DNA of 64,000 nucleotides from Candidatus Parcubacteria bacterium (GTDB lineage: Bacteria > Patescibacteriota > Patescibacteriia > Patescibacteriales > UBA12075), in NCBI GenBank assembly GCA_963814275.1, contig CAWFCE010000002.1, positions 702,919 to 766,918 on the forward strand. The letters run 5' to 3'. Of this stretch, positions 9,916-63,545 are shown piece by piece (position 1 is the first letter of the stretch; the number at the start of each line of letters is the position of its first letter). The notes beneath the pieces were generated by a model that worked only from the letters and a program-made list of their open reading frames with translations, was not told the DNA's origin and made no database searches. The position numbers were made by a program, and so were the translations under genes.

Positions 9916-10012
9916 CACGCAGCACGTAACACGTAACATATAATACTTAATACATAATACTTAATACATAATACATAATACATAATACATAATACTTAAT
10001 ACTAAAAACTTT
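9880..10012. repeat. Family D repeat copy 1: (gcacgca)x~7 heptamer tandem followed by an atacttaatac(at)aatac tandem
   Basis: gcacgcagcacgcagcacgcagcacgtagcacgcagcacgtaacacgtaacatataatacttaatacataatac...; related copies at 30470-30520 and 36432-36505. Confidence 0.6.
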
Positions 10013-11703: not shown

Positions 11704-12224
11704 GGCGCACCCCCCTTCTATTTGGATTACCGGAACGTTATAAAAAACAAAAAAGCCGGTATTGGCCGGCTTAAAAATGAAGTTCTATTTTCGGACAAGG
11801 ACGAAATCATATTCGTTTTTGTTGCGTAAAACATACCCGTGGATAGATTCGTATTAACTTATACCTATATTATAGCATAGGTCATTTAATTGGAAAAGTA
11901 TGGCAGCCACGCTCAATTGAAATATCCGTCAGTTATTTTTCCAGTTAGCAATTTTTGTGCCAGGTCATAAACGAAGAATGGTTGCAAACGAAGGTTTTTC
12001 CCTCGATGGAAATTTCTCTCGCGTAAACCGCGCCAGCGGGTTTAGCCCTAAAACGAAACCGGACCCAACCGTCCGGTTTTTTTATGGGGCAATAAGATCG
12101 ATTTTCCCTGAATTTCGTGCATTTGTCATTAGTTTGTGTTAAAATAAAGTTAAGTTTCAGTATAGATTATTTTACATTTTTATTTGTCATTTTGATTTTT
12201 GCATTTTGAATTTATATATCCAAT

Positions 12225-18200: not shown

Positions 18201-18737
18201 TTCGTGATCGAGCGCGGCTTCTACCGGGTGAGCGACAAGGAATACGCCGAACCGGTCGCTTCCGCCGCGGTCGGGGACGTCCTGCGCGGACACCTGAAGA
18301 TCAGCGTGCCCAAGCAGAGGAATTTCGTCTCGGTCGAGGATTTCATACCGGCCGGCGTGGAAATAGTGAATTTCAACCTGGATACGGAAAACGCGGCCGC
18401 GGTGCAGGATTATTCCGGGGAGATGGCGGACAGCGATTTCATAGACGCCGGCAGCGCCGCTGATTATTATAACGATTATTATAATCCCTGGTACTATAGC
18501 TGGCGCGATTCCCATAAGCTATATCCGGATTTTACCGAATCGCACGACGACCGCGTATTCCTCTATAAGGAACGGCTCGCTCCGGGCGAGTACGAATATG
18601 ATTATTTCGTGCGGGCGCTCGTACCCGGCCGCTTCCAATGGCTGCCGGCCCGGATCCAGGAGATGTATTTTCCGGAGAATTTCGGCCGGACCGGCGGGGG
18701 GATATTCGTGGTGAATGAGAAGAAGACGGAGATTTGA
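12225..18737 (+). CDS. Bacterial alpha-2-macroglobulin family protein (thioester-containing, YfhM/ECAM-like), 2170 aa, N-terminal TM anchor
   Basis: Thioester motif GCSEQ (DYPYGCSEQIASKLD), very large beta-rich protein, N-terminal hydrophobic helix, adjacent to pbpC. Confidence 0.88.
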   Translation: MKFFPQEPLTALKGKKHAVFVGLIAFFSLWAVIFVFIYTRDLRIAREPVRQKRDWQYELFAAPPAYRAVDAIVAKSVSQSAAIAINLPPDLGVSTDEAKTAVAFTPAIAGEWQAGAEDKLVYRPQDKLVVGNYYTVTLALSDGTIGADFVVEDDPAVLNVFPKAGSETHENSEITILFNRPMVPLSSLDIMAPDDIPVEITPATAGRFKWIGTRSLKFIPDSALVRSANYSVKIKPDFQSMDGLGIAGFDHQFSTRHLRYESVSQGSLIYDAPIRVKFNMPVDLDKTKDHIWMKDTDKNQRIDFIAEYAIKKIYDPEKKAWNDFEDQSELWIYNKADRYGREKLWDFGGHYFLMVEKAVPSEGDIILTESRQAQYQATGIIESIGAESEQSKWVDKDLFDASGKLTIKFYEDIDLAGSRITGDRLADIEYGEKCKDDGGGLVMYGSADCEKETDHSLLLLAFDQDKIKRGDVLKLNLEKIVNSEGFTINTEPIEETIRVIPELKVLSTEPADGSSNASLTDFYLCTNLPLVVPAKEDIDAYLEVNLPYNYSDWGQSYRVPDSADSYWKCRPGEFRTQIFYGLAPESDYRLKFDLQDEFGGELEKTIAVRTAAMSDFFLNFYHLQDKVLLTTPDKTKLTFAAENMDYVDMDICRLDAEAMVRLLSGKPDYWAGPDTIKNCRERIKKRIDLPKLYWAKNYFQVDLKDYVPDTKGHWLITFSNPHYIEYYGDKRPVYERVYLTVSNIGITEKKIDIGTIENTDMAELKNIFWITDLKTLAPVSGAAIRIFNRITNDSLEESGTVVTDSRGIAEYQAAGQPQALIVAAGDDSAVMANNDSTLEYAARAGSSARIYAYTDRPIYRPGQEVHIKGIYRIGYDNDYEIFADRKVEVVVRDSRYMEISKQSVAVNDFGTFALDLELPPDAALGTYSVRTDNSNSNFDVEEYVPAAFKVDVTSRQEEYISRDTVTLDIDASYYFGAPVEGGEVEYAIGSQDYHFDRYSDPNFRFGSDWYRCYWDCSYNDKFILRNTAKLGADGKATISHKLDLSEIFKDEEEAMSKIIVVYVTVKNSSGQSVSAQQSFIMHRGEYYLGISAAKRFLGEGEKFDLKLKSVDTKGNNSPDRKIELSISRIEWKSVKRKEVDGGYYYRWEETLMPAVNDSVTTDKNGDFKKEYALQDSGEYKVVVKGSDSRGNEIRNSYYLYVYGSGQADVRPTNDHTLEIEAGQSAYQTGDTAEVIIKSPFEKGKALISLERGRVFHYDIVDVDQGLYRYQFPVTEDYIPNIFVSATLLSGEPDIKYGSTQLMVDTDRKEITIDVSTEKDHYLPGEEVNLSLYAYDADKRPVEADISVAVADLSVLALKGNPKKNPVVFFYSGFPLTVMTASNMKNILFETDVPTGTKGGGGAEAEDLAKKKRGIFKDTALWEAFVRTDKSGRASLHFTLPDNLTTWQVEALGVTRDTRLGVEYAEFVARKDLMLTPLVPRFIVPGDEFAVGAKIFNQTKEAQDLDVSLAETGLALVDDAKAAIRIPAGASDTVYFRVKAPADTDEGGYGFTLSAGNKAVEDTVAGSVQIRPNDTYETTATAGYSRDTEVNEYVYLPESVLPDKGGLSITTSATLAVFLSDALNSLLDYPYGCSEQIASKLDAIAIIKRGLNLENIGDKFVPDKVEYDGQKYTIDELVAIGLADIYKDQDTGGGFRYYPGSGTASFYLSLHIADTLRNLEAAGYPVDEAVFGRLFNYLQKQIVYEQYPRLGNEDYIYAARTLYSLKDKWPVNAAIGKRIAAILNNDKYLNEDIGSLALANLALMLSENPGIFGNNYLNRALDNLENRIEIDSRGAFLPQGDTWSWFYYETPVRDSAMLLKALVSAERDNNILDRVLRWLLNSRYKDGAWGSTNNTLGAVDALVDYIKWQNENKSNFTLSVNFNQATLKNMTFGPGNIFEQSRLEMSVPEIGLGQLDRISFAKENLNEENNNFYYDLALRYYLPAESLPPRDEGFVIERGFYRVSDKEYAEPVASAAVGDVLRGHLKISVPKQRNFVSVEDFIPAGVEIVNFNLDTENAAAVQDYSGEMADSDFIDAGSAADYYNDYYNPWYYSWRDSHKLYPDFTESHDDRVFLYKERLAPGEYEYDYFVRALVPGRFQWLPARIQEMYFPENFGRTGGGIFVVNEKKTEI

Positions 18738-18853
18738 GATTGGAAATTGGAAATTGGAAATTTGAAATTCGAAAAGACGCCCAGGCTTTGCCGGGGCGTC
18801 TTTTGTATTTTATTGAACCTGTTTGCCGGGGCATTGCGCGCAATGCCCCGGAC
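18737..18853. terminator. (ggaaatt)x4 micro-tandem followed by two GC hairpins between convergent A2M and pbpC
   Basis: gattggaaattggaaattggaaatttgaaattcgaaaagacgcccaggctttgccggggcgtcttttg; gccggggcattgcgcgcaatgccccggac. Confidence 0.5.
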
Positions 18854-27929: not shown

Positions 27930-27977
27930 TCGTTTTTCATATTATTTACGTGAAATAATATGACCACACCCCTATCT

Positions 27978-28153
27978 GTAAATTTCTAATATCTAATTCC
28001 TAAATCCTAAACAAATCCCAAATTCCAATGTCGAAAAAACCGAAACACGGCCGTTTATCAATATTCGCGATAATATTATGCGTTTAGAGTTTTGAATTTG
28101 GGATATTTGAATTTGTTTAGGATTTATGATTTAGAGTTTAGGATTTGTTGATC
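27978..28153. repeat. Family A palindromic element copy 3
   Basis: taaatttctaatatctaattcctaaatcctaaacaaatcc ... ggatttgtttaggatttatgatttagagtttaggatttg. Confidence 0.6.
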
Positions 28154-28203
28154 AATTCAACCATGGTTCATTCATAACCGAAAAGGAAAGGAGCTAAGGA
28201 AAA

Positions 28204-30158: not shown

Positions 30159-30243
30159 GACTAATTCCCTCCTTTCATGTGTTTTGGTTTTCGATACCTA
30201 AAAATTAGCTCAAGGGGAAGAAAATGTCAATGCGGAACGAGTT

Positions 30244-30425
30244 GTAAAGTTATAAAGTTTGTAAAGTTATAAAGTTTTTAAAGTTTGTAAAGTTGAAAGT
30301 TATAAAGTTTTTAAAGTTTGTAAAGTTGAAAGTTATAAAGTTTTTAAAGTTTGTAAAGTTGAAAGTTATAAAGTTTTTAAAGTTTGTAAAGTTGAAAGTT
30401 ATAATGTTATAAAGTTTTTTAAGGT
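30244..30425. repeat. 33-bp tandem repeat x~5 (aagtttttaaagtttgtaaagttgaaagttata) in a divergent promoter region
   Basis: Direct reading of perfect and near-perfect 33-bp units. Confidence 0.85.
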
Positions 30426-30469: not shown

Positions 30470-30520
30470 CACGCAGCACAATATACTTAATACTAAATAC
30501 TAAATACTTAATACTAAAAA
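30470..30520. repeat. Family D repeat copy 2
   Basis: cacgcagcacaatatacttaatactaaatactaaatacttaatactaaaaa. Confidence 0.5.
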
Positions 30521-31077: not shown

Positions 31078-31689
31078 ATGGAAAAATATACTTTACCCAA
31101 ATTAAAATACGGCTATGGCGATCTGGAGCCTTATATCTCTGAAGAAATAATGACACTTCACCACAGCAAGCACCACCAGGCCTATGTCAACGGCGCCAAC
31201 GCGGTGGTCGAGAGACTCAGGAAGGCGCGGGAGGCCGGCGCGGAAGTCGATATGAAAAGCGAATTGAAGACCCTGTCCTTCAACCTGAACGGCCATCTGC
31301 TCCATTCCCGGTTCTGGGATATATTGGGGCCGGCCAAGGACGTGGCCAAATTGCCGTCCGGCAAGCTAAAGGAGGATATGGATGCGGCCTTCGGCGGCTG
31401 GGAGCGCTTCATGAAAGAATTCACCCAGGCCGCCATGAGCGTCGAGGGCTCGGGCTGGGCGGCCTTGGTCTACCACCCCGTAAGCGGGTTGCTCATCATG
31501 CAGATCGAGAAGCACAATGCCAATTGCTATGCCGGACACGAGATACTGATGCTCGTCGATGTCTGGGAGCACGCCTACTACCTTGACTACAAGAACGACC
31601 GGGGGAAGTATCTGGAGGGTTTTTGGAATGTGGTGGACTGGGAGGAAGTGGGGAAGAATTATGGCAATATTAAGAAGAAATATATTTAA
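31078..31689 (+). CDS. Superoxide dismutase, Fe/Mn family
   Basis: HHSKHHQAYV, DVWEHAYYLDY signature. Confidence 0.92.
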   Translation: MEKYTLPKLKYGYGDLEPYISEEIMTLHHSKHHQAYVNGANAVVERLRKAREAGAEVDMKSELKTLSFNLNGHLLHSRFWDILGPAKDVAKLPSGKLKEDMDAAFGGWERFMKEFTQAAMSVEGSGWAALVYHPVSGLLIMQIEKHNANCYAGHEILMLVDVWEHAYYLDYKNDRGKYLEGFWNVVDWEEVGKNYGNIKKKYI

Positions 31690-31692
31690 TTT

Positions 31693-31870
31693 ACAATAAT
31701 CCAATAATCCAATTTTCAATTAATATTTAATATCTAATTTTTAATTTTCAAACCAGTCTATTTTAATATTTGATATTGAAAATTAAATATTGTTTGGATT
31801 ATTGGATTATTGAAAATTGGATTATTCAGACTGGATTATTGAAAATTATTGCGTTGATTATTCTTAATAA
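31693..31870. repeat. Family B palindromic element copy 1 (caataatccaataatcc arms; centre tattttaatatttgatattgaaaattaaatatt)
   Basis: Imperfect inverted arms ~35 bp; copies also at 32500-32640 and 63378-63545. Confidence 0.65.
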
Positions 31871-32499: not shown

Positions 32500-32640
32500 G
32501 TTACTCAATTTTCAATAATCCAATAATCCAAACAATATTTAATATCTAATACTTAATTTTCAATCCGGCCTATTTTAATATTTGATATTGAAAATTAAAT
32601 ATTGATTGAGTCACTGGATTATTGGATTATTGATAATTTA
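32500..32640. repeat. Family B palindromic element copy 2
   Basis: caataatccaataatccaaacaatatttaat ... attaaatattgattgagtcactggattattggattattg. Confidence 0.65.
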
Positions 32641-32651
32641 AATAAAAAGTT

Positions 32652-33149: not shown

Positions 33150-33760
33150 AAATAATAATCCGCTATAAACGTTTAGTGTAATGTGGCACGGGATTGCTTC
33201 GCCCCGCAGTGTGTGGGGCTCGCAATGACAGGTTGATTAGGATTGCTTCGTCCCGCAGCGTTTTTATATACTGTCATTGCGAGCGACAGAAAAGATTATT
33301 ATATACGGATAATATTTGGATGAAGATATAAGCAGTTGTTTGAACGTATGTGAAGTCGCGAAGCAATCCCGAAGCGTTTTTTTTCTGTCATTGCGAGCGA
33401 CAGAAATAAATTATGGTTTATGAACCGATTTTGATAAAGTACTATGAAGTTGCTTCCGTGTACGAGAAGTCGCGAAGCAATCCCGAGGCGCGAGGAACCA
33501 GCCCTTTTTACCTCTCTTTTATAAACGCTTAGTGATTTGTGGCACGGGATTGCTTCGCGACTCCATGACCGAAAAATATACCAGTCAGATTTTTATCGCA
33601 GTTCCGATAAGCTAATATGTATTTGCGGTCGCTCGCAATGACAGGTTAATACGGGATTGCTTCGCCCCGCAGTGTGCGGGGCTCGCAATGACAGATTAAA
33701 TTGGATTGCTTCGCTCCCCAGCGTACAGGGCTCGCTGGTACTGTAAAAATGTAATGCTAC
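33150..33760. repeat. GC-rich nested-palindrome element, family C copy 2 (expanded, ~610 bp)
   Basis: Multiple copies of tgtcattgcgagcgacagaaa, gaagtcgcgaagcaatcccgaggcg, ggcacgggattgcttcgc[gactcc/cccgcagtgtgcggggctcgcaatgaca]; ~85-90% identical to 35470-35890 over ~420 bp. Confidence 0.7.
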
Positions 33761-35424: not shown

Positions 35425-35895
35425 AACCACCACCTTTCTGTCATTGCGAATCCCGAAGCGTTTTTTACATTGTCATTGCGAGCGACAGAAAAAACTATTA
35501 TCTACGGATATATATGGATGAAGATTTAAGCAGTTGCTTCCGCATACGAGAAGTCGCAAACCAGTCCCGAGGCGTTTTTTACATTGTCATTGCGAGCGAC
35601 AGAAATAAATTATGGTTTATGAACCGATTTTGATAAAGTACTATGAAGTTGCATCCGCATACGAGAAGTCGCGAAGCAATCCCGAGGCGCGAGGAACTAG
35701 CCTTTTTTAACCGCTTCGTAATCAACGCTTAGTGATTTGTGGCACGGGATTGCTTCGCGACTCCATGATCGAGAATAAAACCAATCAGATCGTTATCGCA
35801 ATTACCAGAAGCTAATATGTATTTGCGGTCGCTCGCAATGACAGATTAATTAGGATTGCTTCGCCCCGCAGCGCGCTGGGCTCGCAACGACAGGA
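35425..35895. repeat. GC-rich nested-palindrome element, family C copy 3; direct repeat of copy 2
   Basis: Same module order and orientation as 33290-33700. Confidence 0.7.
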
Positions 35896-35914
35896 TATTA
35901 TTAACAATAAATAT

Positions 35915-36451: not shown

Positions 36452-36505
36452 CATATAGCACGCAACAAATTATACTTAATACTAAATACTTAATACTATT
36501 AAGCC
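36432..36505. repeat. Family D repeat copy 3 (overlaps stop of the 35915 gene)
   Basis: gcatcacgcaacatgtaacatatagcacgcaacaaattatacttaatactaaatacttaatactatt. Confidence 0.5.
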
Positions 36506-37159: not shown

Positions 37160-38236
37160 ATGAGACTTTTAATAATCACCCAGAAGATAGATATTAATGA
37201 TTCAATTCTCGGCTTTTTCCATTCCTGGGTTCAGGAGTTCGCCAAGCACACCGAAAAATTAACGGTAATCTGCCTCCAAAAAGGCGAATATGATCTGCCG
37301 GATAATGTATCCGTATACAGCCTCGGTAAAGAGAATTCCAATTTCCAATTTCCAATTTCCAATTCCTCGATTTTCAAAAGAATAAACTACATTTACCGCT
37401 TCTACGGTTTGATCTGGCAAAAACGTAAAGAATACGACACAATCTTCGTCCACATGAACCCCGAATACGCGGTCCTGGCCGGCTGGCTCTGGAAATTGTG
37501 GCACAAAAAAGTCGCCCTTTGGTATACTCATAAGCAGGTTGATCTTAAACTACGTTTAGCGGAAAAGATTGTAGACGTTATATTTACTGCCAGCAAAGAA
37601 AGTTTTCGTCTTCCCAGTAATAAACTGAAGATTACAGGACACGGTATCGATCTTGAAAAGTTTCAACCGTCAAAGAGTAAAAACTCAAATTCAGGAGTTA
37701 AATTTAAAATTTTGTCGGTAGGCAGGATTTCGCCCAGTAAAGATTATGAGACATTGATAAAAGCCCTTAAAATTTTAAAAATGCAAGGTTTTTTATTTCG
37801 GACAAAGATCGTGGGAGGGCCGGTTTATGACAGTGATAAAGTATATTATGAACGATTAAAAAATTTAGTGAAGAATGAAAACCTGGAATCCGAAATTGAA
37901 TTTATCGGTCCTATACCAAATAATAAAATTGTTGATTATTATAATGATGCCGATATTTTCGTTCATATGAGCCAAACTGGCAGTTTAGACAAAGTAGTTC
38001 TTGAAGCGATGGCATGTGGGTTGATTATAATTTCAAATAACGATGCTGTTGTGAGAGATGTATTAATTGAATATAAGGAATATTTATCGTATCCAAAACA
38101 TGATTCAAATGCGTTGGTTGAACGTATTAAAAATTTAGTTGTTTTAGATAGAAGACAATTTTTAGATATAAAAAACGATTTGCATAGATTAGTATCTACG
38201 AATCATGATTTGAAAAGATTAATCAAAATATCATAA
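37160..38236 (+). CDS. Glycosyltransferase family 1/4 (intact)
   Basis: GRISPSKDYETLIKAL, EAMACGLIIISNN (EX7E-region). AT-rich gene. Confidence 0.8.
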   Translation: MRLLIITQKIDINDSILGFFHSWVQEFAKHTEKLTVICLQKGEYDLPDNVSVYSLGKENSNFQFPISNSSIFKRINYIYRFYGLIWQKRKEYDTIFVHMNPEYAVLAGWLWKLWHKKVALWYTHKQVDLKLRLAEKIVDVIFTASKESFRLPSNKLKITGHGIDLEKFQPSKSKNSNSGVKFKILSVGRISPSKDYETLIKALKILKMQGFLFRTKIVGGPVYDSDKVYYERLKNLVKNENLESEIEFIGPIPNNKIVDYYNDADIFVHMSQTGSLDKVVLEAMACGLIIISNNDAVVRDVLIEYKEYLSYPKHDSNALVERIKNLVVLDRRQFLDIKNDLHRLVSTNHDLKRLIKIS

Positions 38237-52221: not shown

Positions 52222-52368
52222 TATAAATTGTAGAATATTTATAAAATATAAATGCCACCCAATAAATTGGGTGGTATTTATTTTTTATTTTTTCCTTATA
52301 TTTTATTTAATTTTATTTCATATGAGTTTTGTTAGAATATAATTAGATAATTATTAATAATAAATTTC

Positions 52369-54780
52369 ATGAAAAAATTATTTTGGACAATTATATTTTT
52401 ATTTATATTTTGTCTTGCTTCCTGGTTCTGCCCCAGGATAGCTTATGCAGGAAATGATATAAAAACCATAAATATTTATGCCGAAAGAAGCGATACTAGT
52501 TTTTCTAATTATAAGGTTGGTAACTTTGTTACATGGAATAAAATAAGAAACGATGCATATGGATATAGGGTAAACGATAATTTTGAATATGTTCATATGC
52601 GAATACGGGGCAAAGGTGGGGCAATTAATTCTAATAGATTTATGGATTTACAAAGAATTGGGTTAAGTTTTGATACAAGCATTCTCGGAGATAATGTACA
52701 GCTTGAAAGCGTCAAGCTGTACATATTTGGGGCGTCAACAACCATTGACAAGCTAGGCATGAGTTCTGTTGACAGAGAAGTTTCGTTGGTTGATTTTTAT
52801 CCCAGTTCTTCAGTAAAATATACGATTTATGATTATAATAAATTTGGCACTGAAAAGTTAGCAGACAATATCGATCCTGGTGAAAATTTTTCTTTATGGA
52901 AATATAACGAATATAATGTATTTGACATGTATCAGTCAGTTTTTAACAGAATTGATAAAACAGGGTTTACAAATTTAGGATTAAGGTTTGAGTGTGATCG
53001 TGTTAACCATGAACCGTCTTTTGAAAATACACAAGATCAAAACGCATTATTGTATATGTATTTCAGGGACTCGAGAAATCAAAATTTTTGGCCCTATTTA
53101 GAAGTAAGCTATTCCGTTCCAGATGATAATGAAGAATTAAATCCGGTAGTTGTTGTGCCCGGCATTGGGGGGAGTTGGGAGAAAGACCGGGAGTGGGTGA
53201 TTGATCCGATCTTGCATACCTATGATTATCTTCTGGAGGCATTCGAGGCAGCCGGGTATGTGCCGGGAGAGACATTGTTCACTATGCCCTATGACTGGCG
53301 CAACGACAACCGCTACAGCGCGATCCAGCTCCGGGAGGCGATCGAGGCGGCCAAAGGGGACGCGGGCGGGAAAGTCGATATTGTCGCCCATAGCATGGGC
53401 GGACTGGTGGCCCGGTCCTATATCGAGAGCGACAACTACCGGGATGATGTCGATCAGCTGATCTTTCTCGACACCCCGCAAGCCGGGGCGCCCGAGAGCT
53501 ACTTGGCTTATGAAGGGGCGTATCTGCCCGGAATGATCGGCGCGATCAAGAAATTCTATTTCGAGGTCGAGGGGAAGCTGCATGGCTATGACAGCTTGCC
53601 GGAATATTTTCGGGAAAAGGTAATCGGCCTGGGCCAGCTTCTGCCTGATTACAGCTATTTGTATGATAATACGGGTAATGAGTGGCAGCTCCGCGCGTAT
53701 CCGGATAACTACCCCCGGAATGTATTCCTGGAAGATCTCAATTTGGCGGGAAATATCGACAAACTGCTCATGCGGAGCAATACCTATAATATCTACAGCT
53801 ATGCCGGGGTCATTGATACGGATGATACAACTATGACGGGTTTCCGGGTCGAATTGCCCAAGAAAAATGATCCCGATTGGCTGCATGGCTATCCGGTTAA
53901 TTTGTCGTCTGCCAAAGACGGGGTGATGATGGGCGCGGGCGACGGCACGGTGCCGCTGGAGAGCCTTGTAGCCCTGCCAATGGCGGACAGCAAAATCGTC
54001 GCTTCGGCCGGACACCGCGAGATCGTCACCCAGGCCCAGCAGGAGGTGATCGAAGCCCTGACCGGCGAGCGTCCGGATGATTTCGTGTCCGGCCCTCTGG
54101 CCAGGATCAAGCGGCTCTTATTCGTGCGCGTCTATTCGCCGGTTGATCTTCTGGTCACCACCCCAGCCGGCGAGCGCCTGGGCTACGACGCGGCCACCGG
54201 CGCGGACATCTTCGAGCCCTTCGGCAGCTTCTATAGCGGGCACAGCGCCGCGGCCGAATTCGCCACCTGGCCGGTGCCTGCGGAGGGTACTTATCAAGTG
54301 GCCCTGACCGGCACGGCGGACGGTTATTACCGGTTGGGGTTCGATGTGCTTACGGATGCGGCGGAGGAAGCCGCAGAGCCGGCCATTTACGGCATTATCC
54401 GGAACGGTGAAAGCAAAAATTACGCATATACTTTGACACCAGACAGCGCCGGACAGACGGAAATTAATCTGAATACGGAAATTAGCCCGAACGATTTTGC
54501 CCGGGATATCGAAGCGATCAACGGCCTGGGCGGCTTCTCGCGCAAAGCAGTCTACAACTATCTCCGGGCGCAGGCGAAGATTATCGGCAAAGAGTGGGAC
54601 AAGCTTGATTCCGGCAGCAAACGCGCCCGACCGTTATTGTCGCTCATCGCCAAAGGCCATCTGCTGGTACTCGAAAAATTACTGGATTTTTATCTTAACA
54701 AGCAATGGATAACGCCGGAGGGGCATGGAGTGTTGCACGGGGATATTGGATGGCTGAGAATTACGTTAGCTGGAAAATAG
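52369..54780 (+). CDS. Secreted LCAT-like / lipase-class alpha/beta hydrolase (803 aa)
   Basis: Signal peptide. VVVPGIGGSW...YDWRNDN...VDIVAHSMGGLVARSY (GxSxG nucleophile elbow). Paralogous to the 56621 gene. Confidence 0.65.
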   Translation: MKKLFWTIIFLFIFCLASWFCPRIAYAGNDIKTINIYAERSDTSFSNYKVGNFVTWNKIRNDAYGYRVNDNFEYVHMRIRGKGGAINSNRFMDLQRIGLSFDTSILGDNVQLESVKLYIFGASTTIDKLGMSSVDREVSLVDFYPSSSVKYTIYDYNKFGTEKLADNIDPGENFSLWKYNEYNVFDMYQSVFNRIDKTGFTNLGLRFECDRVNHEPSFENTQDQNALLYMYFRDSRNQNFWPYLEVSYSVPDDNEELNPVVVVPGIGGSWEKDREWVIDPILHTYDYLLEAFEAAGYVPGETLFTMPYDWRNDNRYSAIQLREAIEAAKGDAGGKVDIVAHSMGGLVARSYIESDNYRDDVDQLIFLDTPQAGAPESYLAYEGAYLPGMIGAIKKFYFEVEGKLHGYDSLPEYFREKVIGLGQLLPDYSYLYDNTGNEWQLRAYPDNYPRNVFLEDLNLAGNIDKLLMRSNTYNIYSYAGVIDTDDTTMTGFRVELPKKNDPDWLHGYPVNLSSAKDGVMMGAGDGTVPLESLVALPMADSKIVASAGHREIVTQAQQEVIEALTGERPDDFVSGPLARIKRLLFVRVYSPVDLLVTTPAGERLGYDAATGADIFEPFGSFYSGHSAAAEFATWPVPAEGTYQVALTGTADGYYRLGFDVLTDAAEEAAEPAIYGIIRNGESKNYAYTLTPDSAGQTEINLNTEISPNDFARDIEAINGLGGFSRKAVYNYLRAQAKIIGKEWDKLDSGSKRARPLLSLIAKGHLLVLEKLLDFYLNKQWITPEGHGVLHGDIGWLRITLAGK

Positions 54781-54787
54781 CGATTTA

Positions 54788-56190
54788 TGTGGTTTAGCCG
54801 TGTATTATAGATTTCTCACTGCGCCGCGGCTCCGTTCGAAATGACAGAAAAGAGAGGATTCGAAATGACAGAAAAGAGAGGATTCGAAATGGCAGAAAAG
54901 AGAGGATTCGAAATGGCAGAAAAGAGAGGATTCGAAATGGCAGAAAAGAGAGGATTCGAAATGGCAGAAAAGAGAGGATTCGAAATGGCAGAAAAGAGAG
55001 GATTCGAAATGGCAGAAAAGAGAGGATTCGAAATGGCAGAAAAAAGGGAAGTTCTGCAGGGATGAAAGTAGCATGGTGGTGTCGGAAAACATGAAATGAT
55101 ACGGCCACATTCGTACTCGACGAACCGCCCATCTTTTTCAATTCGACGACCCCCCCTTCTGTCATCTCGATCCGCCGACGAGGCGGAGAGAGATCTATAA
55201 TACGTGGGTTGCGCAACAAGCAGTCTTTGTGGTTTAGCCGTGTATTATAGATTTCTCACTGCGCTCCGCTCCGTTCGAAATGACAAAAAAGAGAGGATTC
55301 GAAATGACAGAAAAGAGAGGATTCGAAATGACAGAAAAGAGAGGATTCGAAATGACAGAAAAGAGAGGATTCGAAATGACAGAAAAGAGAGGATTCGAAA
55401 TGACAGAAAAGAGAGGATTCGAAATGACAGAAAAAAGGGAAGTTCTGCAGGGATGAAAGTAGCATGGTGGTGTCGGAAAACATGAAATGATACGGCCACA
55501 TTCGTACTCGACGAACCGCCCATCTTTTTCAATTCGACGACCCCCCTTCTGTCATCTCGAGGCCGCAGCCGAGAGATCTATAATACGCGGATAACGCAGG
55601 CGGACGGGTTTGTGGGTGAGCGGAGTATTATAGATTTCTCACTGCGCTCCGCTCCGTTCGAAATGACAGAAAAAAGGGGAGGTTCGAAATGACAGAAAAG
55701 AGAGGATTCGAAATGACAGAAAAGAGAGGATTCGAAATGACAGAAAAGAGAGGATTCGAAATGACAGAAAAGAGAGGATTCGAAATGACAGAAAAGAGAG
55801 GATTCGAAATGACAGAAAAGAGAGGATTCGAAATGACAGAAAAAAGGGAAGTTCTGCAGGGATGAAAGTAGCATGGTGGTGTCGGAAAACATGAAATGAT
55901 ACGGCCACATTCGTACTCGACGAACCGCCCATCTTTTTCAATTCGACGACCCCCCTTCTGTCATCTCGATCCGCCGACGAGGCGGAGAGAGATCTATAAT
56001 ACGTGGGTTGCGCAACAAGCAGTCTTTGTGGTTTAGCCGTGTATTATAGATTTCTCACTGCGCTCCGCTCCGTTCGAAATGACAGAAAAGAGAGGATTCG
56101 AAATGACAGAAAAGAGAGGATTCGAAATGACAGAAAAGAGAGGATTCGAAATGACAGAAAAAAGGGGAGGTTCGAAATGACAGAAAAAAA
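54788..56190. repeat. Higher-order tandem array: ~390-440 bp super-unit x3.5, each holding 4-9 perfect copies of a 24-bp unit (ttcgaaatgacagaaaagagagga), a conserved ~140-bp tail and a ~60-bp header
   Basis: Headers tgtggtttagccgtgtattatagatttctcactgcgc at ~54788, 55227, (variant) 55618 and 56026. Tails ...agggaagttctgcagggatgaaagtagcatggtggtgtcggaaaacatgaaatgatacggccacattcgtactcgacgaaccgcccatctttttcaattcgacgaccccccttctgtcatctcga. No unique spacers. Confidence 0.9.
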
Positions 56191-56208: not shown

Positions 56209-56610
56209 ATGAGAAAATATCATAACTTTGATACCCAAAAATATCGTTTCGATGTTTATATTTTGAGTAATTATGATCGTATAGTTTTCTATGTCGGCTA
56301 CACGAACAGTCTTGCCCGCCGCATAATTGAGCATCGGCTGGGTATCGGCAGTAAATTTACTGCCAAATATAAATGTTTTTATCCGGTTTTTTATGAAAGC
56401 TATCAATATGTATATGACGCGATAAGCCGGGAAAAAGAAATGAAAAAGTGGAGAAGAGCGAAAAAATTGAAATTGATCGAAGAAAATAATCCACAGTTTG
56501 TTGATTTGAGCAGAAATATATTCGAAGAGTTTGATTTGGATAATAAAGCGGTCAAGTCAGTCGCGACAGAATTATCGCTTAGAGCAGGAAAACAAACAGA
56601 TTATAAATAA
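56209..56610 (+). CDS. GIY-YIG nuclease superfamily protein (COG2827/UPF0213-type)
   Basis: RFDVYILSNYDRIVFYVGYTNSLARRIIEHRLG...AKY...PVFYESY...AISREKEMKKWRRAKKLKLIE. Confidence 0.75.
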   Translation: MRKYHNFDTQKYRFDVYILSNYDRIVFYVGYTNSLARRIIEHRLGIGSKFTAKYKCFYPVFYESYQYVYDAISREKEMKKWRRAKKLKLIEENNPQFVDLSRNIFEEFDLDNKAVKSVATELSLRAGKQTDYK

Positions 56611-56620
56611 TATCAATACT

Positions 56621-59197
56621 ATGCGCAAGATTATCATTTCGATTTTTATCATCGGCGCGTTGTTATTGCCGATTACGTTTAGCGCCAACCGGATAGCAGT
56701 CAGGATCGGAGAGACGGCCACCCAGCCGAGCCTGTATATCGATACCGAAGTGATCTGGACCGCGGAAGACAGTCCGTATGTGATCGGCAGCTACCCGAAT
56801 GCTTCACTCTATATCGCCCCGGGCGGGTCTTTGTTCATCGAGCCGGGCGTGGCGGTCATGATGTATGACGGGGCCAGTATCCGGGTGGACGGGGAATTGT
56901 TCCTGAATGGCGGGCCCGATAACCCGGTAATTATTACGTCTCATTGGGACGATGCCGATGAGGGCGCCGGTCCGGACGGGCGGGAGCCGGCGCCGGGAGA
57001 CTGGCAGGGGATTTACGTGGAGGATGACGGCTATCTCAGCCTGGAGAACACGGCTATCCGCTACGGCGGTTATCAGACCTATTTGTATGACCGGGCGACA
57101 GACGGCTATTGGATAGGGAACCGCGCCCGGGCCCAGGAGGATAACGGGCGCGCAGTCGGCGCGATCAATATGGTCGGCGAGGGGAACATAGAGATTGAAG
57201 ACTCGGTAATTACCGGAAATACGATCGGCCTGTGGATCGCCGCCGCCGCCGTCGGCGAGGAAGACAAGGAAATCACGATCAGCGGCAGCGAAATATGGGG
57301 CAATACGGCCGCGGGGATAATAAACGACACCGAATATGTGATAAATGCGGAAGAGAACTGGTGGGGCGACAATTCCGGACCCTACCACGAGACTGGTAAC
57401 CCGGCAGGCTTGGGGGAGAGGCTGGTCGGACCGGTCGATTTCGACAATTGGCTGACGCGCGAAAATGGCGGGGACGAAGAGAGCGGTCCGTATCCGGTGA
57501 TCATAGTCCCGGGGATCGGCGCTTCGGTCAACCTGGACCTGATGATCGGGGGCATTTTCAACGATAACTGGAAGATGTTCGACCATACCTACGACGGGAT
57601 CATCGAGGCCTTCAAAGCGATGGGATATGAAGAGGATATAGACCTGTACATCTGCTACTATGACTGGCGGCAGGACAATGCCGTCTCGGCCGCGGAATTC
57701 CTGAAGCCGCTCATCGACCGGGCTCTGGCGGCCAGCGGCTCGTCCAAGGTGAACATAGTCGCCCATAGCATGGGCGGCCTGGTGGCCCGGAGCTATATCC
57801 AGGGCGATAATTACGGAAATGACGTGGATAATCTGTTCCTGATCGGCACGCCTAACCACGGCTCATCAGACATCTATCCGGTCTGGGAGGGCGGTTATGT
57901 GCCGAAGAATTGGGATCACCGTGTAATTATGAATGCCTATATTAACTTATTGAAGGTTAAAGGTTGGAGTAAATCCAGTTATGAAACTGTTCACCATTAT
58001 ATTCCTTCTGTAAAACAACTCCTGCCTGTTTATAGCTATATCCATCCCGTAAATGATCCGGAAAACATTTTGAATTATGTTGATATGACCGTACTCAATA
58101 ATTTTCTGCTTGATCTAAACAGTGATATTCCAACGCTTAATGACCGGGCGAAAGTCAGCGTCATCTCCGGCAATGGCCAGGATACGGTCAATATGGTCCC
58201 GGTGATTGAAGCCAGCGAAGAAGCGCCGCTTTGGATGGATGGTAAACCCGTACCGCTTGATCCGGCAAAAAACGATACGGCCGGCGACGGCCGGGTATTG
58301 CTATCCTCATCGGAGATCCAGAGCTATTTCGCCCAGACCCTCTCCGGCAGCCACGGCGCGATCGTCAGCCTGGCCGAGCCGCTAATCGCGACAGAATTGA
58401 ATAAGTATCTGGATATCATGTACCCGGCGCCGGTAATCAATTCGGAGATGCTGGTCTGGGTCGCCTCGCCGGTGGATATTGAGATCAATGACCCGGTTGG
58501 TAAAACGATTTCCTCGTCTATAAACGATATACCGCTGGCCCGATACACTTCGGAGTCGAAGCCGGACGGGGTCAAGCTCATTTCCATCCCCAATCCGGTG
58601 GCCGGAAAATATGAGATTCATCTGACCGGCAACGGCGCGGGCGAATACCATCTCGGCCTGGAATACGCCGATTATACCGGCAGCAAAGAAGACTATTCCG
58701 CCCTGGTCCAGGGCGAGGTCGCGCCGGGTGAAACCAGGGAATACGCGGTTGCCTATGATCCGCAGGCGGAAAGCCCGGTAGGCGGTATTGAATCCGGCGG
58801 TATTACCATCGACAGTACCATCGCCGATATTGATCGACTTTATGAAACGGGCGAGATATCGAAAGAAGCAGCCAGGGATAATCTGGTAAAATCGCTGGAA
58901 TGGATAAAAAGATATGAAGAAAAATACGGCGAAAGGCTGGAGTTACGCGATAAAGTAGCGGACCAGATCATGGACAAATGTTCTGACAAGAGAAGCGACA
59001 AGTGGTGCGCCGGACATATCGGGAAAAAGATCGGCCAGGTAATATACATATTAGACGGTCTGCACGCGATGATAGTGAAGGTGAAATATAATTTGTTGCT
59101 AGCCCAGCTCAAATCTTATTACCGGAAAAACTGGGTAAGCGCGCCGGCTTATGGTATAATTAAGGAAGATATTGAATATTTAATTGATAATTTATGA
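56621..59197 (+). CDS. Secreted protein with N-terminal parallel beta-helix repeats and an LCAT-like alpha/beta hydrolase domain (paralogue of the 52369 gene)
   Basis: Likely start MRKIIISIFIIGALLLPITFSA (signal peptide). NTIGLWIAA...GNTAAGIIND beta-helix-like repeats. VIIVPGIGAS...YDWRQDN...VNIVAHSMGGLVARSY. Confidence 0.65.
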   Translation: MRKIIISIFIIGALLLPITFSANRIAVRIGETATQPSLYIDTEVIWTAEDSPYVIGSYPNASLYIAPGGSLFIEPGVAVMMYDGASIRVDGELFLNGGPDNPVIITSHWDDADEGAGPDGREPAPGDWQGIYVEDDGYLSLENTAIRYGGYQTYLYDRATDGYWIGNRARAQEDNGRAVGAINMVGEGNIEIEDSVITGNTIGLWIAAAAVGEEDKEITISGSEIWGNTAAGIINDTEYVINAEENWWGDNSGPYHETGNPAGLGERLVGPVDFDNWLTRENGGDEESGPYPVIIVPGIGASVNLDLMIGGIFNDNWKMFDHTYDGIIEAFKAMGYEEDIDLYICYYDWRQDNAVSAAEFLKPLIDRALAASGSSKVNIVAHSMGGLVARSYIQGDNYGNDVDNLFLIGTPNHGSSDIYPVWEGGYVPKNWDHRVIMNAYINLLKVKGWSKSSYETVHHYIPSVKQLLPVYSYIHPVNDPENILNYVDMTVLNNFLLDLNSDIPTLNDRAKVSVISGNGQDTVNMVPVIEASEEAPLWMDGKPVPLDPAKNDTAGDGRVLLSSSEIQSYFAQTLSGSHGAIVSLAEPLIATELNKYLDIMYPAPVINSEMLVWVASPVDIEINDPVGKTISSSINDIPLARYTSESKPDGVKLISIPNPVAGKYEIHLTGNGAGEYHLGLEYADYTGSKEDYSALVQGEVAPGETREYAVAYDPQAESPVGGIESGGITIDSTIADIDRLYETGEISKEAARDNLVKSLEWIKRYEEKYGERLELRDKVADQIMDKCSDKRSDKWCAGHIGKKIGQVIYILDGLHAMIVKVKYNLLLAQLKSYYRKNWVSAPAYGIIKEDIEYLIDNL

Positions 59198-59619
59198 AGA
59201 CTGTTTTGATATTGATAACCTCTTTATTTATTGTTGGTGTCATAATTTCTCCGTTCTTCTGGATTAGGTTTTCATCAAAAAGACGTAAAATATTATTTTT
59301 ATCAGTTTGTTCATTGCTTAGTCTCCTTTTAGCAATTTTTTTTCAGTTCTGGCTTTATGATTTTATTTTGGACAATTATATACATACCTATGATGCGCTT
59401 TCATATTTTGATGGTATAAGCACGAATGCACTTTATATTTTTATCGCATTAATATTATTTTCCCCTTTCATTTTCACCAAGATTCTCTACCAGCAATTTA
59501 CCATTAAAAGGATTATTATATCATTACTTCTCTCTATTTTGATATTAACCGCGTTAGTCCTGATTTTTGCGTATGTTATTTTTCCCATGGTCGGCAGCGC
59601 TCTCTTGAATAACGTATAA
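59194..59619 (+). CDS. Hypothetical 4-TM membrane protein
   Basis: Start overlaps the preceding stop (ATGA); hydrophobic helices. Confidence 0.45.
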   Translation: MKTVLILITSLFIVGVIISPFFWIRFSSKRRKILFLSVCSLLSLLLAIFFQFWLYDFILDNYIHTYDALSYFDGISTNALYIFIALILFSPFIFTKILYQQFTIKRIIISLLLSILILTALVLIFAYVIFPMVGSALLNNV

Positions 59620-59644
59620 GTTATAAAAATAAACTGAAAAAGAA

Positions 59645-59678
59645 AAGCGTACCTCTGGGTACGCTTTTGCGTTGCCGG
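59645..59678 (+). terminator. Rho-independent terminator
   Basis: aaagcgtacctctgggtacgcttttg. Confidence 0.6.
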
Positions 59679-60152
59679 GAAACCGGTGATCAAGCCGCCA
59701 GCTTCAAGCGCCGGTTGATAAGATTTTATTTATAAATTCTTTATATATTATTTAAAATTTAATCATATCGGTTTGTTAGAATATTATTAGGATATAATTA
59801 ATTAATATTAATATAATAATAGTTATCGAAAGTGGGCTTATTCGGCTTCTTAAAGCTGTCATTCTGGAGGCCGCAGGCCGATAGAATCCCGAGCCACAAT
59901 ACTCCGTCCCGGTATAACCGCCGTTCAACTCATCGCGCCACCTGGCACAGTACGGGGGTTAATGACGTTTTTCATAAACGCCACGGGGCCCTATCGCCCC
60001 TGCGGGGCTCCAGGGTGACAGGTTTAGGAACCGTTAATTCAAGAGTTAACTCTGTAATTAATATAATCGACAAAATTCAATAATAAGGGAAAGGTACAGT
60101 ATGGGCTCTCGTTCCGCAACACGCGGGGCGGGAGCTCTGCTGTTTCTATTCA

Positions 60153-60696
60153 GTAAACAGTAAATAGTAAGCAGTAAACAGAAACAAAAAACCGCCCTTG
60201 GCAGTTTGGGAACGGAACTTTAATAATCAAATATTATGCGATGGAAGCTTAACTATATGACACAAGATATTAATCATTTTACCCATTTGATCGCCTGGCA
60301 GAAAAACCATTCCGTATTATTGGATTTATATGGTATATCTAAAAAATTTCCCAGTGAAGAATTATTTGTTTTAGTAAGCCAGATAAGAAGAGCCGCTTTA
60401 TCCGTAACCGCTAATTTAGCGGAAGGTTATGGTCGTTATCATATAAAGGATAGGCTCAGATTTTATGTCCAGGCGAGAGGCTCGAATACTGAGCTGCAAA
60501 ATCATATAATAGTAGCTCATGACCTTGATTATATAGACGATTCTGAATTCGAACGATTAAAAGCGGCAATATTCGAAGGCTATAAATTGATTTGCGGATT
60601 AATCAAAAGTACAAATAATATGCTAAATTCCTAAGTTACTAACTTCCTACCGTCGCATAATAAAATTCTGTTTACTGTTTACTATTTACTGTTTAC
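60153..60696. mobile_element. IVS-like cassette: four-helix-bundle gene enclosed by near-perfect 29-bp inverted repeats (60153-60181 / 60668-60696)
   Basis: gtaaacagtaaatagtaagcagtaaacag versus rc of ctgtttactgtttactatttactgtttac (1 mismatch). Confidence 0.55.
60236..60634 (+). CDS. Four-helix-bundle protein (TIGR02436 / 23S rRNA intervening-sequence protein family)
   Basis: HLIAWQK...LLDLY...FPSEELFVLVSQIRRAALSVTANLAEGYGR...FYVQARGSNTELQNHIIVAHDLDYI: typical family signature. Confidence 0.75.
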   Translation: MRWKLNYMTQDINHFTHLIAWQKNHSVLLDLYGISKKFPSEELFVLVSQIRRAALSVTANLAEGYGRYHIKDRLRFYVQARGSNTELQNHIIVAHDLDYIDDSEFERLKAAIFEGYKLICGLIKSTNNMLNS

Positions 60697-60700
60697 TTTT

Positions 60701-62062
60701 TCACACCCCGCTCCTTCTGAAAATCGTGGCGATCGTTTTTAAGACTATCGTCATATCCAGATAGAGCGAGCGGTTTTTGACGTAGTAGAGGTCGTATTGA
60801 AGCTTCTTCAGGGTGTCTTCCTTGGACGGGGAGTGGTATTCGCCCGAGACCTGGTCCCAGCCGGTCGCGCCCGGCTTCACCAGGAGGCGCTCTTCGTAGT
60901 AGGGGATCTCGTACTTCAGGCGGCGGACCAGCTCCGGGCGTTCCGGGCGGGGGCCGATGAAGCTCATCTGGCCCAGGATGACATTGAGCACCTGGGGGAT
61001 CTCGTCGATCCGGGTCTTTCTTAGGAAATTGCCTACCTTGGTCGTGCGCGGATCGTTCGCCAGACTGGGCGACGGGTCCTGGCTGACCGTGTGCTGGGTG
61101 CGGAACTTCAGGATATGGAAGATCCGGCCGTTCTGGCCGACCCGGTCCTGGCTGATGAAGATCGTTTCCTTGTTCTCGATCTTGAGGAGCAGGCCGATTA
61201 TCGGCCAGAAGGGCGCGCTTATCACCAGGATAGAGATGCTTAAGGCCAGGTCATAGGCCCGTTTGAGTAGGTTGTACCACTTCTTATTGCCCTCGCTCAG
61301 ATTCTCGAGGAACCACATCTGGCTGATCGCCTCCAGCGGGATCTTGCCCGTAACCGATTCGTAGAAATTGGCCAGGTTAATGAAATTTATCTTCAGAGGC
61401 AGGCAGGCGAAGAGGATTTGGCGCAGTTCCGGCGACTGGTGCGGATTGGCGGCGAATATGATCGAGCTGACGCGCAGGCGGGTTATGTATTTTTCCAGAT
61501 CAGTGATCTTGTCGGTAATGACAGTATCGTCCCTGGTGCCGCGCGGCAGGCGGCTCGATATTATCAGCTTCACCTCATAGCCGAGATGGGGCTTATCCTC
61601 CAAGGTATCGATCAATTCCTGGACATTGGTATTATAGCCGATCACCGCCAGATGCTCCTTGGGCATCTTGGAGTAGAGCAGCCAATTGAAAAACCGCCGC
61701 CACAAAAGGAACAAGACGATAAATATGGCCAGGTAGATCAAGAGGTTCCTTTTCGGGGCGATCGTAATGCTCGGAGTCGCGTAGAAGAAGACGACCGACA
61801 ACAGTCCCGCGATCACGGCCGAACGGACAGTGTTGACGAAGAATTTCCGGTTGTTGACGGCCATGTGGATATTATAGAGGTCCGCGATATAGAAAATGAA
61901 GATCCAGGCGATGAAAGCGATAGTAAAGGGCAGGAAGTGCGACTGCCAGGCGCTGGCTGAAGGCAGCGCGAAATAACGCACCAACAGGGTGAGGTAAAGG
62001 GAGAGGTAGAGAACGGCGATATCCCCCAAGAGCAGGATAATTTTTTTCAGTCTTTTTTGCAT
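60701..62062 (-). CDS. Polyprenyl-phosphate sugar phosphotransferase (bacterial sugar transferase, WbaP/WcaJ type)
   Basis: 4-5 N-terminal TM helices, central domain, C-terminal KRAYDLALSISIL...RVGQNG..F.ILKFRT...DEIPQVLNVILGQMSFIGPRPERP...KPGATGW. Confidence 0.88.
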   Translation of the reverse strand: MQKRLKKIILLLGDIAVLYLSLYLTLLVRYFALPSASAWQSHFLPFTIAFIAWIFIFYIADLYNIHMAVNNRKFFVNTVRSAVIAGLLSVVFFYATPSITIAPKRNLLIYLAIFIVLFLLWRRFFNWLLYSKMPKEHLAVIGYNTNVQELIDTLEDKPHLGYEVKLIISSRLPRGTRDDTVITDKITDLEKYITRLRVSSIIFAANPHQSPELRQILFACLPLKINFINLANFYESVTGKIPLEAISQMWFLENLSEGNKKWYNLLKRAYDLALSISILVISAPFWPIIGLLLKIENKETIFISQDRVGQNGRIFHILKFRTQHTVSQDPSPSLANDPRTTKVGNFLRKTRIDEIPQVLNVILGQMSFIGPRPERPELVRRLKYEIPYYEERLLVKPGATGWDQVSGEYHSPSKEDTLKKLQYDLYYVKNRSLYLDMTIVLKTIATIFRRSGV

Positions 62063-62221: not shown

Positions 62222-62281
62222 ACCAAACAATAACCAAACCTGCCTGCCCTGCCTGCCCTGCCTACCGGCAGGCAGGCAGCA
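62222..62281. promoter_or_regulatory. Perfect GC-rich hairpin built from ctgcc pentamers in the divergent region between the sugar transferase and holB
   Basis: cctgcctgccctgcctgccctgcctaccggcaggcaggcagcaggcagg. Confidence 0.5.
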
Positions 62282-62322
62282 GGCAGGTTGTATCTTGGTT
62301 ATTGGATATTATTAGTTTTTAG

Positions 62323-63366: not shown

Positions 63367-63377
63367 AATTCTTCTAT

Positions 63378-63545
63378 TATCAATAATCCTTTTTTAATTT
63401 TCAATAATCCAGTAACTCAATAATCCAAACAATATTTAATTATCAATATCAAATATAAAAACAAAGTTATTCGAATAGTCAGTTTGAAAATTAAATATTT
63501 ATTATTGATTGAAAATTGGATAATTAAAAATTGGATTATTAATAG
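63378..63545. repeat. Family B palindromic element copy 3
   Basis: caataatccagtaactcaataatccaaacaatatttaat ... gaaaattggataattaaaaattggattattaatag. Confidence 0.6.

Follow-up and report, generated by a model that had tools for sequence, protein, structure and literature searches.

The closest known counterparts of the element reported here lie within ribosomal RNA (rRNA) genes. In Coxiella burnetii an intervening sequence (IVS) of 428-444 nt interrupts helix 45 of 23S rRNA and carries an open reading frame (ORF) for an S23p (PF05635) protein; its 28-bp terminal stem is cut by RNase III in mid-stem, as mapped by rapid amplification of cDNA ends, and three tandem GACAGAT heptamers with a degenerate fourth are situated upstream of the ORF, in a copy number that varies between strains (PMC4990558). 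IVP ORFs, as the members of this gene family are called, were also found within insertions in 16S and 23S genes of the candidate phyla radiation (10.1101/2024.02.27.582315). What the ORF does in IVSs and where these came from have both been open questions since 1993. We analysed a stretch of 64,000 nt from a Candidatus Parcubacteria genome (contig CAWFCE010000002.1, positions 702,919 to 766,918 of the forward strand; this whole stretch is the window, and positions are counted from its first letter). Here an IVP gene is located in a 546-bp element (60152-60697) closed by inverted repeats, which does not lie within a helix of 23S or 16S rRNA and is flanked by protein-coding genes. With fair confidence we read the element, as a whole, as a free-standing cassette of the IVS type; an RNase III step at this particular copy, predicted from the likeness to rRNA, is less certain than the cassette reading itself.

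The element is built of the following parts:

60152..60183, plus strand: left (5′) arm, a tandem heptamer array (repeat search; Tandem Repeats Finder, TRF, 5.3 copies; pairing in the minimum free energy, MFE, fold)
60232..60247, plus strand: 5′ half of an inner stem, covering a weak GGAAG site that resembles a ribosome-binding site 9 nt before ATG 60257 (repeat search, MFE fold, sequence)
60257..60634, plus strand: IVP/Avd-like four-helix-bundle gene, 125 aa from ATG 60257, the longest ORF running from 60236 (Pfam, TIGR02436, PDB 2GSC, homologue alignment)
60647..60662, plus strand: 3′ half of the inner stem, beginning 12 nt past the stop codon (repeat search, MFE fold)
60666..60697, plus strand: right (3′) arm, reverse complement of the left arm (repeat search, TRF, MFE fold)

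The original prediction, made from the letters of the window, had described near-perfect inverted repeats of 29 bp around the gene. They are real and slightly longer: the repeat search gave arms of 32 nt each, 97% complementary and 482 nt apart, with 31 of the 32 positions paired and a G opposite T as the sole non-Watson-Crick position. Local alignment of the flanks scored 59; 30 shuffles averaged 17.5 and reached at most 26. The left arm reads AGTAAAC AGTAAAT AGTAAGC AGTAAAC AG; TRF reported period 7 on both sides (CAGTAAA ×5.3 at 60151-60186 and CTGTTTA ×4.9 at 60668-60701), and the unit variant with AAT stands at mirror-image places on the left and on the right. The inner inverted repeat, which adjoins the ORF, has halves of 16 nt with 88% complementarity. 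Both stems are present in the MFE fold of 60140-60710 as RNA (-148.4 kcal/mol, z = -6.0 in comparison with shuffles), and the 32-bp terminal stem appears in the centroid fold as well. Thus the proposal that the arms form a stem of the IVS type agrees with the fold, whereas their description as a palindrome was incomplete, as they are tandem heptamer arrays like that of the Coxiella IVS.

Assignment of the gene to the TIGR02436 family of four-helix-bundle proteins was confirmed. The ORF 60236-60634 matches PF05635 (23S_rRNA_IVP) with E-value 4e-31 and 107.8 bits (cut-off 33.8) and TIGR02436 with E-value 7e-30 and 103.5 bits (cut-off 24), both above the curated cut-offs; similarity to PDB 2GSC, the Xanthomonas protein XCC0516, has E-value 1.7e-12. 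Homologues are 120-127 aa long and their alignment begins at Met8 of the longest ORF, so that ATG 60257 is probably the true start, giving a product of 125 aa. The window protein contains the conserved polar motif Q-x2-R-x3-S-x3-N-x2-E-G followed by R-G-S-x2-E, a motif of the IVP family already remarked upon (PMC3936711). In 27 diverse homologues Q49, R52, S56, N60, E63, G64, G82, S83 and E86 are invariant, and R81 is conserved in at least 90%. No match to PADLOC defence models was observed. In four longer proteins of the family (P0317, P0349, P0384 and P0414; 450-890 aa) the IVP domain is situated at the N terminus; these may be either real fusions or products of gene calling that read through from a cassette into the next gene.

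The Rfam scan found no rRNA and no other family at gathering threshold across the 64 kb of the window, nor any tRNA, and within 59400-60900 no credible match was seen even at E-value ≤10. The idea of rRNA or another known RNA at or near the locus was rejected on these scans; that no rRNA is recognisable nearby had been noted from the letters. In other respects the element is similar to the ORF-containing 23S IVSs of Coxiella and Leptospira, with a sense-oriented PF05635 gene in an element of 430-760 nt closed by a stem of ∼28-32 bp, and it shares with the Coxiella IVS a tandem heptamer arm of related unit. GACAGAT read in another register is AGATGAC, the arm unit at one of the homologous loci fetched for comparison (L093); further units close to that of Coxiella are AGATAAC (L005 and L094), AGATAGC (L001), AGTGAAC (L006) and AGTAAAC (window). 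The element differs from rRNA IVSs in its position between convergent protein genes, in having its own internal promoter-like site and in its second, inner stem; also, RNase III cleavage has been demonstrated for the Coxiella IVS and is a prediction here. Since the PF05635 ORF, the terminal stem of ∼30 bp and the related heptamer units are shared, the window element appears from its sequence to belong with the ORF-containing IVSs, its habitat being another one.

A protein search gave 61 relatives of the window protein, mostly from Patescibacteria, and a scan at one genome per species gave 80 loci from Patescibacteria, Bacteroidota, Acidobacteriota, Chloroflexota, Nitrospirota, Gemmatimonadota and other phyla. 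For each locus the 300 nt upstream of the gene were aligned to the reverse complement of the 250 nt downstream, and the score was compared with those of 30 shuffles. The original prediction had named absence of the repeats from other copies of the gene as an argument against itself; we found that at 64 of the 80 other copies the best inverted repeat exceeds all 30 shuffles. Scores of 30 or higher were observed for 62.5% of the IVP ORFs and for 1% of 310 control ORFs (100-200 aa, same loci; Mann-Whitney p = 6e-36), i.e. such a repeat is 60 times more common around IVP ORFs than around ORFs of matched size from the same loci. The median arm is 30 nt and the median element 491 nt long. The arm period, determined for 63 cassettes, is 7 in 45 of them, 8 in 10, 6 in 6 and 9 in 2, and the 5′ arms are rich in purines and contain little C (A 0.37, G 0.30, T 0.26, C 0.07).

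The units themselves vary widely between cassettes (AGATAAC, AGTGAAC, TAATTAG, GAAAATG, GGGTATA and AAGGCG among others). In 54 of the 63 cassettes the left arm finds its best partner in its own right arm, with a median score of 35 vs 8 for foreign partners. Three loci (L045, L035 and L077) contain two cassettes each, with differing arms; the match between arms thus goes with the cassette, not with the genome. Sixteen of the 80 copies have weak arms or none, with the ORF intact; for instance, complementarity at L004 is 73%. We also considered the arms as stop signals in all three frames for the upstream genes and rejected this idea, as the frequencies observed (27% vs 14% in shuffles for left arms, 25% vs 3% for right arms) are an effect of periodicity.

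The location outside rRNA had been presented originally as an oddity. It is not one: flanks are ORF-dense at all 80 loci with none being rRNA-like, and an Rfam scan of 18 loci detected no rRNA, the only hit being a cobalamin riboswitch upstream of the cassette of L028. On the present sample, a location outside rRNA is the usual habitat of IVP cassettes. The data suggest that the rRNA copies occupy a minority habitat of a very widespread cassette, the IVP protein having matches at E-value ≤1e-3 in 15,310 representative protein clusters, and that the normal site is an operon spacer, with a stem specific to the copy. The fit is tight, with median gaps of 8.5 nt between the upstream gene and the left arm and of 11 nt between the right arm and the gene that follows; in 44 of 59 loci the IVP gene and both its neighbours share one orientation. 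The window copy occupies a spacer between convergent genes, a less common context in its class, and its locus is an ordinary member of that class. As for the locus with the riboswitch (3636-3832, 107 bits), the IVP cassette lies directly downstream at 3919-4448, probably between the riboswitch and the gene under its control.

The closest relatives of the window protein (64-76% identical) are found at unrelated sites, where they split conserved gene pairs: glyS and a peptidase M16 gene at L001, with the glyS stop codon falling within the first repeat unit, secD and secF at L004, ybaB and recR at L093, fba and a TPR gene at L094. Similar positions are on record, with an IVP gene between cmr3 and cmr2 (PMC3936711) and XCC0516 adjoining bccP, where a GGGAATC ×4 array extends over the annotated start (supplement of PMC4692102); four-helix-bundle genes have been listed among strain-specific genes of Arthrospira and UCYN-A. 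In the syntenic locus L088 (transferase 68% identical) the order of lipase, transferase and DNA polymerase III delta′ genes is kept and the site is empty: 80 nt with one bidirectional terminator separate the convergent lipase and transferase genes, where the window has ∼1.5 kb. This extra DNA comprises a membrane ORF rich in AT, a terminator (59643-59668), a promoter-like stretch that is AT-rich too, a GC-rich structured stretch and the cassette. Because the spacers are tightly filled, close relatives placed at unrelated sites and the site empty in L088, we infer that the cassette is mobile and selfish; the earlier idea of a mobile IVS-like cassette agrees with these comparisons. In L086 (also L085 and L087) the site that is empty in L088 holds, at 6400-6720, a different GC-rich element with arms of ∼45 nt (GTCATTCCCGGCGAGCG...GGGAATGAC) and an AT-rich loop.

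Other described systems share some of these features. XCC0516, whose structure (PDB 2GSC) is a homopentamer of four-helix bundles, is like the window protein in its family, in being free-standing and in having a heptamer array at its gene; the heptamer unit is another one, and PMC4692102 lists one arm, read as a G-quadruplex motif, without a link to the gene family. Paired repeats of 7-8 nt on opposite strands of spacers, with the potential to form hairpins, are known from Geobacter metallireducens, from Xanthomonas (GGGAATC) and from cyanobacteria, and these hepta- and octanucleotide sites resemble hairpins of the window that lack an ORF (31686-31860, 27961-28160 and others). The published sites were described without a gene in the loop and were read as protein-binding or G-quadruplex elements: the pairs of Geobacter metallireducens were interpreted as regulator sites (PMC2700814) and the convergent GGGAATC pairs of Xanthomonas as G-quadruplex motifs (PMC4692102). 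Repetitive extragenic palindromes and the mosaic elements made of them (REP/BIME), together with repeats of the miniature inverted-repeat transposable element (MITE) type, are like the window element short, palindromic, located in operon spacers, co-transcribed and able to affect processing or stability of mRNA; however, they have conserved sequences and dedicated transposases (e.g. RAYT), whereas the window element has cassette-specific tandem-repeat arms and a gene in the loop.

Three components were known before: the gene family, its occurrence outside rRNA and the stem of IVSs. In the literature searched we found no paper tying free-standing IVP genes to heptamer stems, and no description of free-standing copies with a tandem-repeat stem of the IVS type, of cassette-specific arms or of the tight fit in operon spacers. 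The present comparison connects scattered observations of paired heptanucleotides, as in Geobacter and Xanthomonas, to a gene family. Free-standing cassettes of this type are under-described as a class and give a direct experimental handle on the role of the ORF and the origin of IVSs.

Three candidate transcription signals lie within and next to the window copy:

60103..60137, plus strand: 15-bp GC-rich terminator-like hairpin directly upstream of the left arm (fold, pattern match)
60189..60207, minus strand: terminator-like hairpin AAACTGCCAAGGGCGGTTT followed by a T-rich run (pattern match only)
60198..60227, plus strand: promoter-like site TTGGCA, 18 nt, AATAAT, with 10/12 matches, inside the cassette 3′ of the left arm (consensus match only)

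The steps that we propose are drawn from the literature on the IVSs of Coxiella, Leptospira and Salmonella. Read-through transcription by the host would allow the arms to form a double-stranded RNA stem of ∼30 bp, which would close off the insert and rejoin the flanking RNA; RNase III would cut the stem, as it does in rRNA, and the IVP message would be released. Removal at the RNA level would make the insertion tolerable in rRNA helices and in operon spacers, so that the element could live in rRNA and between essential genes. Arms made of tandem units in three letters would not fold on themselves, could pair in several registers and could change their length by slippage, to which the strain variation in Coxiella would correspond. 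At the window copy, processing by RNase III would need read-through from upstream, which the hairpin at 60103-60137 may limit; without read-through the IVP gene would probably be expressed from the internal promoter-like site, and only the inner stem would join the ends of the mRNA. The minus-strand hairpin (60207-60189) could stop transcripts of the sugar-transferase gene after their antisense passage through the IVP gene. For genome annotation, the stems could delimit cassettes and flag operons that are probably cut into separate messages.

Repeat-armed structures also occur without the gene. TRF found 15 further arrays of period 7 in the window and none of period 4, 5, 6, 10 or 12. Two families of hairpins lacking an ORF were distinguished:

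5493-5653, 7101-7262, 7333-7417 and 27961-28160: family A, intergenic, e.g. upstream of a peptidase M19 gene
31686-31860 (between sodA and ahpC), 32506-32641 (between ahpC and a glyoxalase gene) and 63376-63542 (after holB): family B

In family A the arms are made of heptamer-like units (TTTGGAA, AATTCCT, TAAATTC), with ∼74% identity between copies. Family B is AT-rich with tandem octamer arms (CAATAATC / TTGGATTA), and its three copies are 74-82% identical; the spacer after holB, which holds one of them, has 206 nt in the window vs 23 nt in the syntenic loci L088 and L086. Among rRNA intervening sequences, stem-loops without an ORF form the majority and only some carry the gene, which makes rRNA a close parallel to these hairpins of the window. 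The gene may invade ORF-less hairpins, or such hairpins may be what is left of its cassettes. Solo heptamer arrays with unrelated units were seen at 9886-10002, 12169-12213, 18728-18774, 30483-30518, 36472-36498 and 37336-37364 (AGCACGC ×5.9 then ATAATAC ×9, ATTTTGC ×6.6, GGAAATT ×6.7, ATACTAA at two sites, TTCCAAT ×4.1), and period 7 outnumbers every other short period in the window.

One further structure lies within a reading frame. In valS (2366-5419, minus strand) an inverted repeat of 34 nt with 88% complementarity (3691-3724 / 4077-4110; heptamers AATGTCG/AATGACG) brackets an in-frame insert of ∼144 aa, with a weak match to the ASCH domain (E-value 0.09), between the conserved motifs HRIPVWY and WVQDEDTLDTWFSS. 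The insert is missing from the orthologues P0190 and P0199; L089 has the same domain without the inverted repeat, and other orthologues have a histidine phosphatase or hydrolase domain at the insert point. Outside the window, CAGTAAA-type arrays were collected at 80 metagenomic loci, and an inverted partner was present at only 13 of them. On a seemingly cyanobacterial contig, L147, inverted arrays of this type (4339-4399 / 5439-5501, 1040 nt apart) bracket fabH; repeat-armed brackets are thus not restricted to small accessory genes.

The reading of the window element as a free-standing IVS-type cassette is carried by the pairing potential of the arms, their covariation from cassette to cassette, the tight fit in co-directional spacers and the diversity of sites. 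Several results weigh against it. We found no identical copy at a second site, and no target-site duplication is evident at the ends of the window element or of the relatives' cassettes that were inspected; the neighbouring gene of the empty-site relative is only 68% identical, and the extra DNA (59194-60700) exceeds the cassette. In Coxiella the ORF is apparently untranslated and the excised RNA labile (PMC4990558). A transcript with both arms is not assured at the window copy: with a terminator-like hairpin ahead of the left arm and a promoter-like site behind it, the main mRNA may lack the left arm and retain just the inner stem plus the right arm. A search for an RNase III gene, which covered the scanned ORFs of the window only, gave none. 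Heptamer arrays are common without an IVP gene, as the 15 others of period 7 in the window illustrate, and CAGTAAA-type arrays had to be rejected as markers of IVP genes, none of the 80 metagenomic arrays having an IVP ORF within 150 nt. Finally, among 257 non-Watson-Crick positions in 63 stems there are, on the sense strand, 53 G·U and 60 A·C, with no excess of G·U. An RNA helix under selection for a long time would normally show one; arms that were created perfect and then decayed, or were homogenised at the DNA level, fit its absence. We take these wobble counts as giving no signal either way for selection on RNA.

Equal frequencies of the two mismatches are, on the other hand, what neutral decay predicts, and they suit an explanation by which the arms are terminal inverted repeats acting in DNA only, with a recombinase in trans or hairpin-mediated replication moving the cassette and the arms decaying neutrally afterwards. 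The copies with weak or no arms and intact ORFs (16 of 80, such as L004), the placement of close IVP relatives at unrelated sites and the multiplication of ORF-less tandem-arm hairpins in the window (family B in three copies, family A in several), one of them filling a spacer of 23 nt in relatives, agree with it too. Still, we observed no transposase or recombinase in or beside the cassettes examined and no target-site duplication, and cleavage of the homologous stem at the RNA level is an experimental fact in Coxiella (PMC4990558). Action in DNA only seems to us unlikely, if worth keeping in mind; the DNA and RNA readings are compatible and both may hold. It is harder to see the arms as functionless, i.e. 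as heptamer repeats born by slippage at gene ends, the inverted pair being a by-product that is perhaps sharpened by template-switch correction of quasi-palindromes. Period-7 arrays are indeed frequent (their density per 100 kb is 23 in the window and, when cassettes are masked, 12.8 around other IVP genes; 50 kb of E. coli contain none), solo arrays account for 67 of the 80 metagenomic CAGTAAA matches, and an ordinary gene, fabH at L147, is bracketed by inverted arrays. The 60-fold enrichment of inverted repeats at IVP ORFs over size-matched ORFs of the same loci, the mirrored variant units and the specificity of arms to the cassette even within one locus speak against this explanation, which we consider very improbable.

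Slightly less credit still is due to the possibility that the heptamers are iterated protein-binding sites, either for autoregulation by the IVP pentamer or for a global DNA-bending regulator as proposed for Geobacter metallireducens. Four to five tandem units per arm do look iteron-like, relatives of IVP (Avd) bind nucleic acid and form pentamers (2GSC; PMC10053308), and the Geobacter authors took such pairs for regulator sites (PMC2700814). But a binding protein would have to cope with units that differ within the window (CAGTAAA, AATGACG, TTTGGAA, AGCACGC, ATACTAA and others) and between the two cassettes of L045, L035 or L077, and with periods ranging between 6 and 9 in the family; the conserved property is complementarity of arm to arm and not a motif. 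The likeness to Avd raises one more question, whether the gene encodes the accessory protein of a diversity-generating retroelement. The fold of bAvd from such systems is homologous, its pentameric barrel binding nucleic acid and the polymerase, and the window protein has weak similarity to Avd models (PF22296, 17.8 bits; NF033474, 19.8 bits; PHROG 3206, E-value 9e-7). These scores are far under the curated cut-offs of 40 bits (PF22296) and 80 bits (NF033474). Unlike bAvd systems, the locus has no reverse transcriptase, since the ORFs scanned within ∼12 kb upstream and 3 kb downstream encode lipases, sulfate-activation enzymes, the sugar transferase and DNA polymerase III delta′, and self-BLAST of 59621-60700 against the window gave no pair of template and variable repeats. 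The retroelement explanation is effectively refuted at this locus and its probability is negligible.

One could go further than the free-standing cassette and speculate that rRNA IVSs are the tip of a class of hairpin cassettes with tandem-repeat arms which is independent of cargo and occurs in operon spacers, rRNA helices and reading frames across phyla, the Avd-like IVP pentamer being its own factor. We regard this as quite unlikely. For reading frames the example is valS, where a domain of 144 aa lies in frame between heptamer arms. Under this speculation the IVP would act on the arms when they are formed, copied or inserted, perhaps together with a polymerase in the manner of Avd, and ORF-less hairpins and solo heptamer arrays would be non-autonomous relatives or scars. 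If true, it would account for the surplus of heptanucleotide repeats that has long been remarked on in genomes such as those of Xanthomonas, Nostoc and Geobacter.

The neighbours of the cassette had been named as a membrane protein and a sugar transferase, and both hold. The minus-strand ORF 60701-62062 matches Bac_transf with E-value 3e-56, its stop codon following the end of the right arm by 3 nt; the ORF 59194-59619 encodes 141 aa, is hydrophobic and has no Pfam match. This membrane ORF has ∼30% GC vs 55-60% in the neighbouring genes and is not found in syntenic relatives. Past its terminator, an AT-rich segment (59726-59811) is 77% identical to 52281-52363, upstream of gene 52369, which suggests a shared promoter region. 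After this AT-rich segment the DNA (59832-60148) is GC-rich and strongly structured, the 15-bp terminator-like hairpin following the stretch listed here:

59832..60100, plus strand: GC-rich structured non-coding stretch with a long-range stem of ∼30 bp, not shown to be part of the cassette (fold, homology searches)

The suggestion that this stretch is a leader or non-coding RNA stands as far as structure is concerned, the RNA fold of 59820-60150 having -134.8 kcal/mol and z = -7.5. No Rfam match at E-value ≤10 and no plausible ORF were seen in it, and no homologue in the fetched loci or elsewhere in the window; it is not present in syntenic relatives, and alignment with their spacer is meaningless. 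A small structured RNA is one possibility for the stretch and an independent GC-rich palindromic insert another; nothing links it to the cassette.

Some other repeats of the window deserve mention. Between two paralogous genes of LCAT-like lipases (52369-54780 and 56531-59197), at 54835-56187, a near-perfect tandem repeat of 24 nt (TTCGAAATGACAGAAAAGAGAGGA) makes up four blocks with 4.7-8.7 copies in each, and the blocks form a higher-order repeat of 409 nt; syntenic relatives have one lipase gene. GC-rich repeat copies with GTCATTGCGAGCG and GGATTGCTTCGC, including a unit of 115 nt repeated twice, are situated at 33620-33740, 35430-35700 and 35810-35900; they look like small palindromic elements of intergenic DNA that form a family of their own. 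In the divergent spacer between the sugar-transferase gene and holB, CCTGCCTGC repeats pair with their complement in a near-perfect, GC-rich hairpin at 62239-62287 (-44.8 kcal/mol over 66 nt). At 30242-30417 a unit of 9 nt (TTGTAAAGT) occurs in 18 copies within a higher-order repeat of 33 nt.

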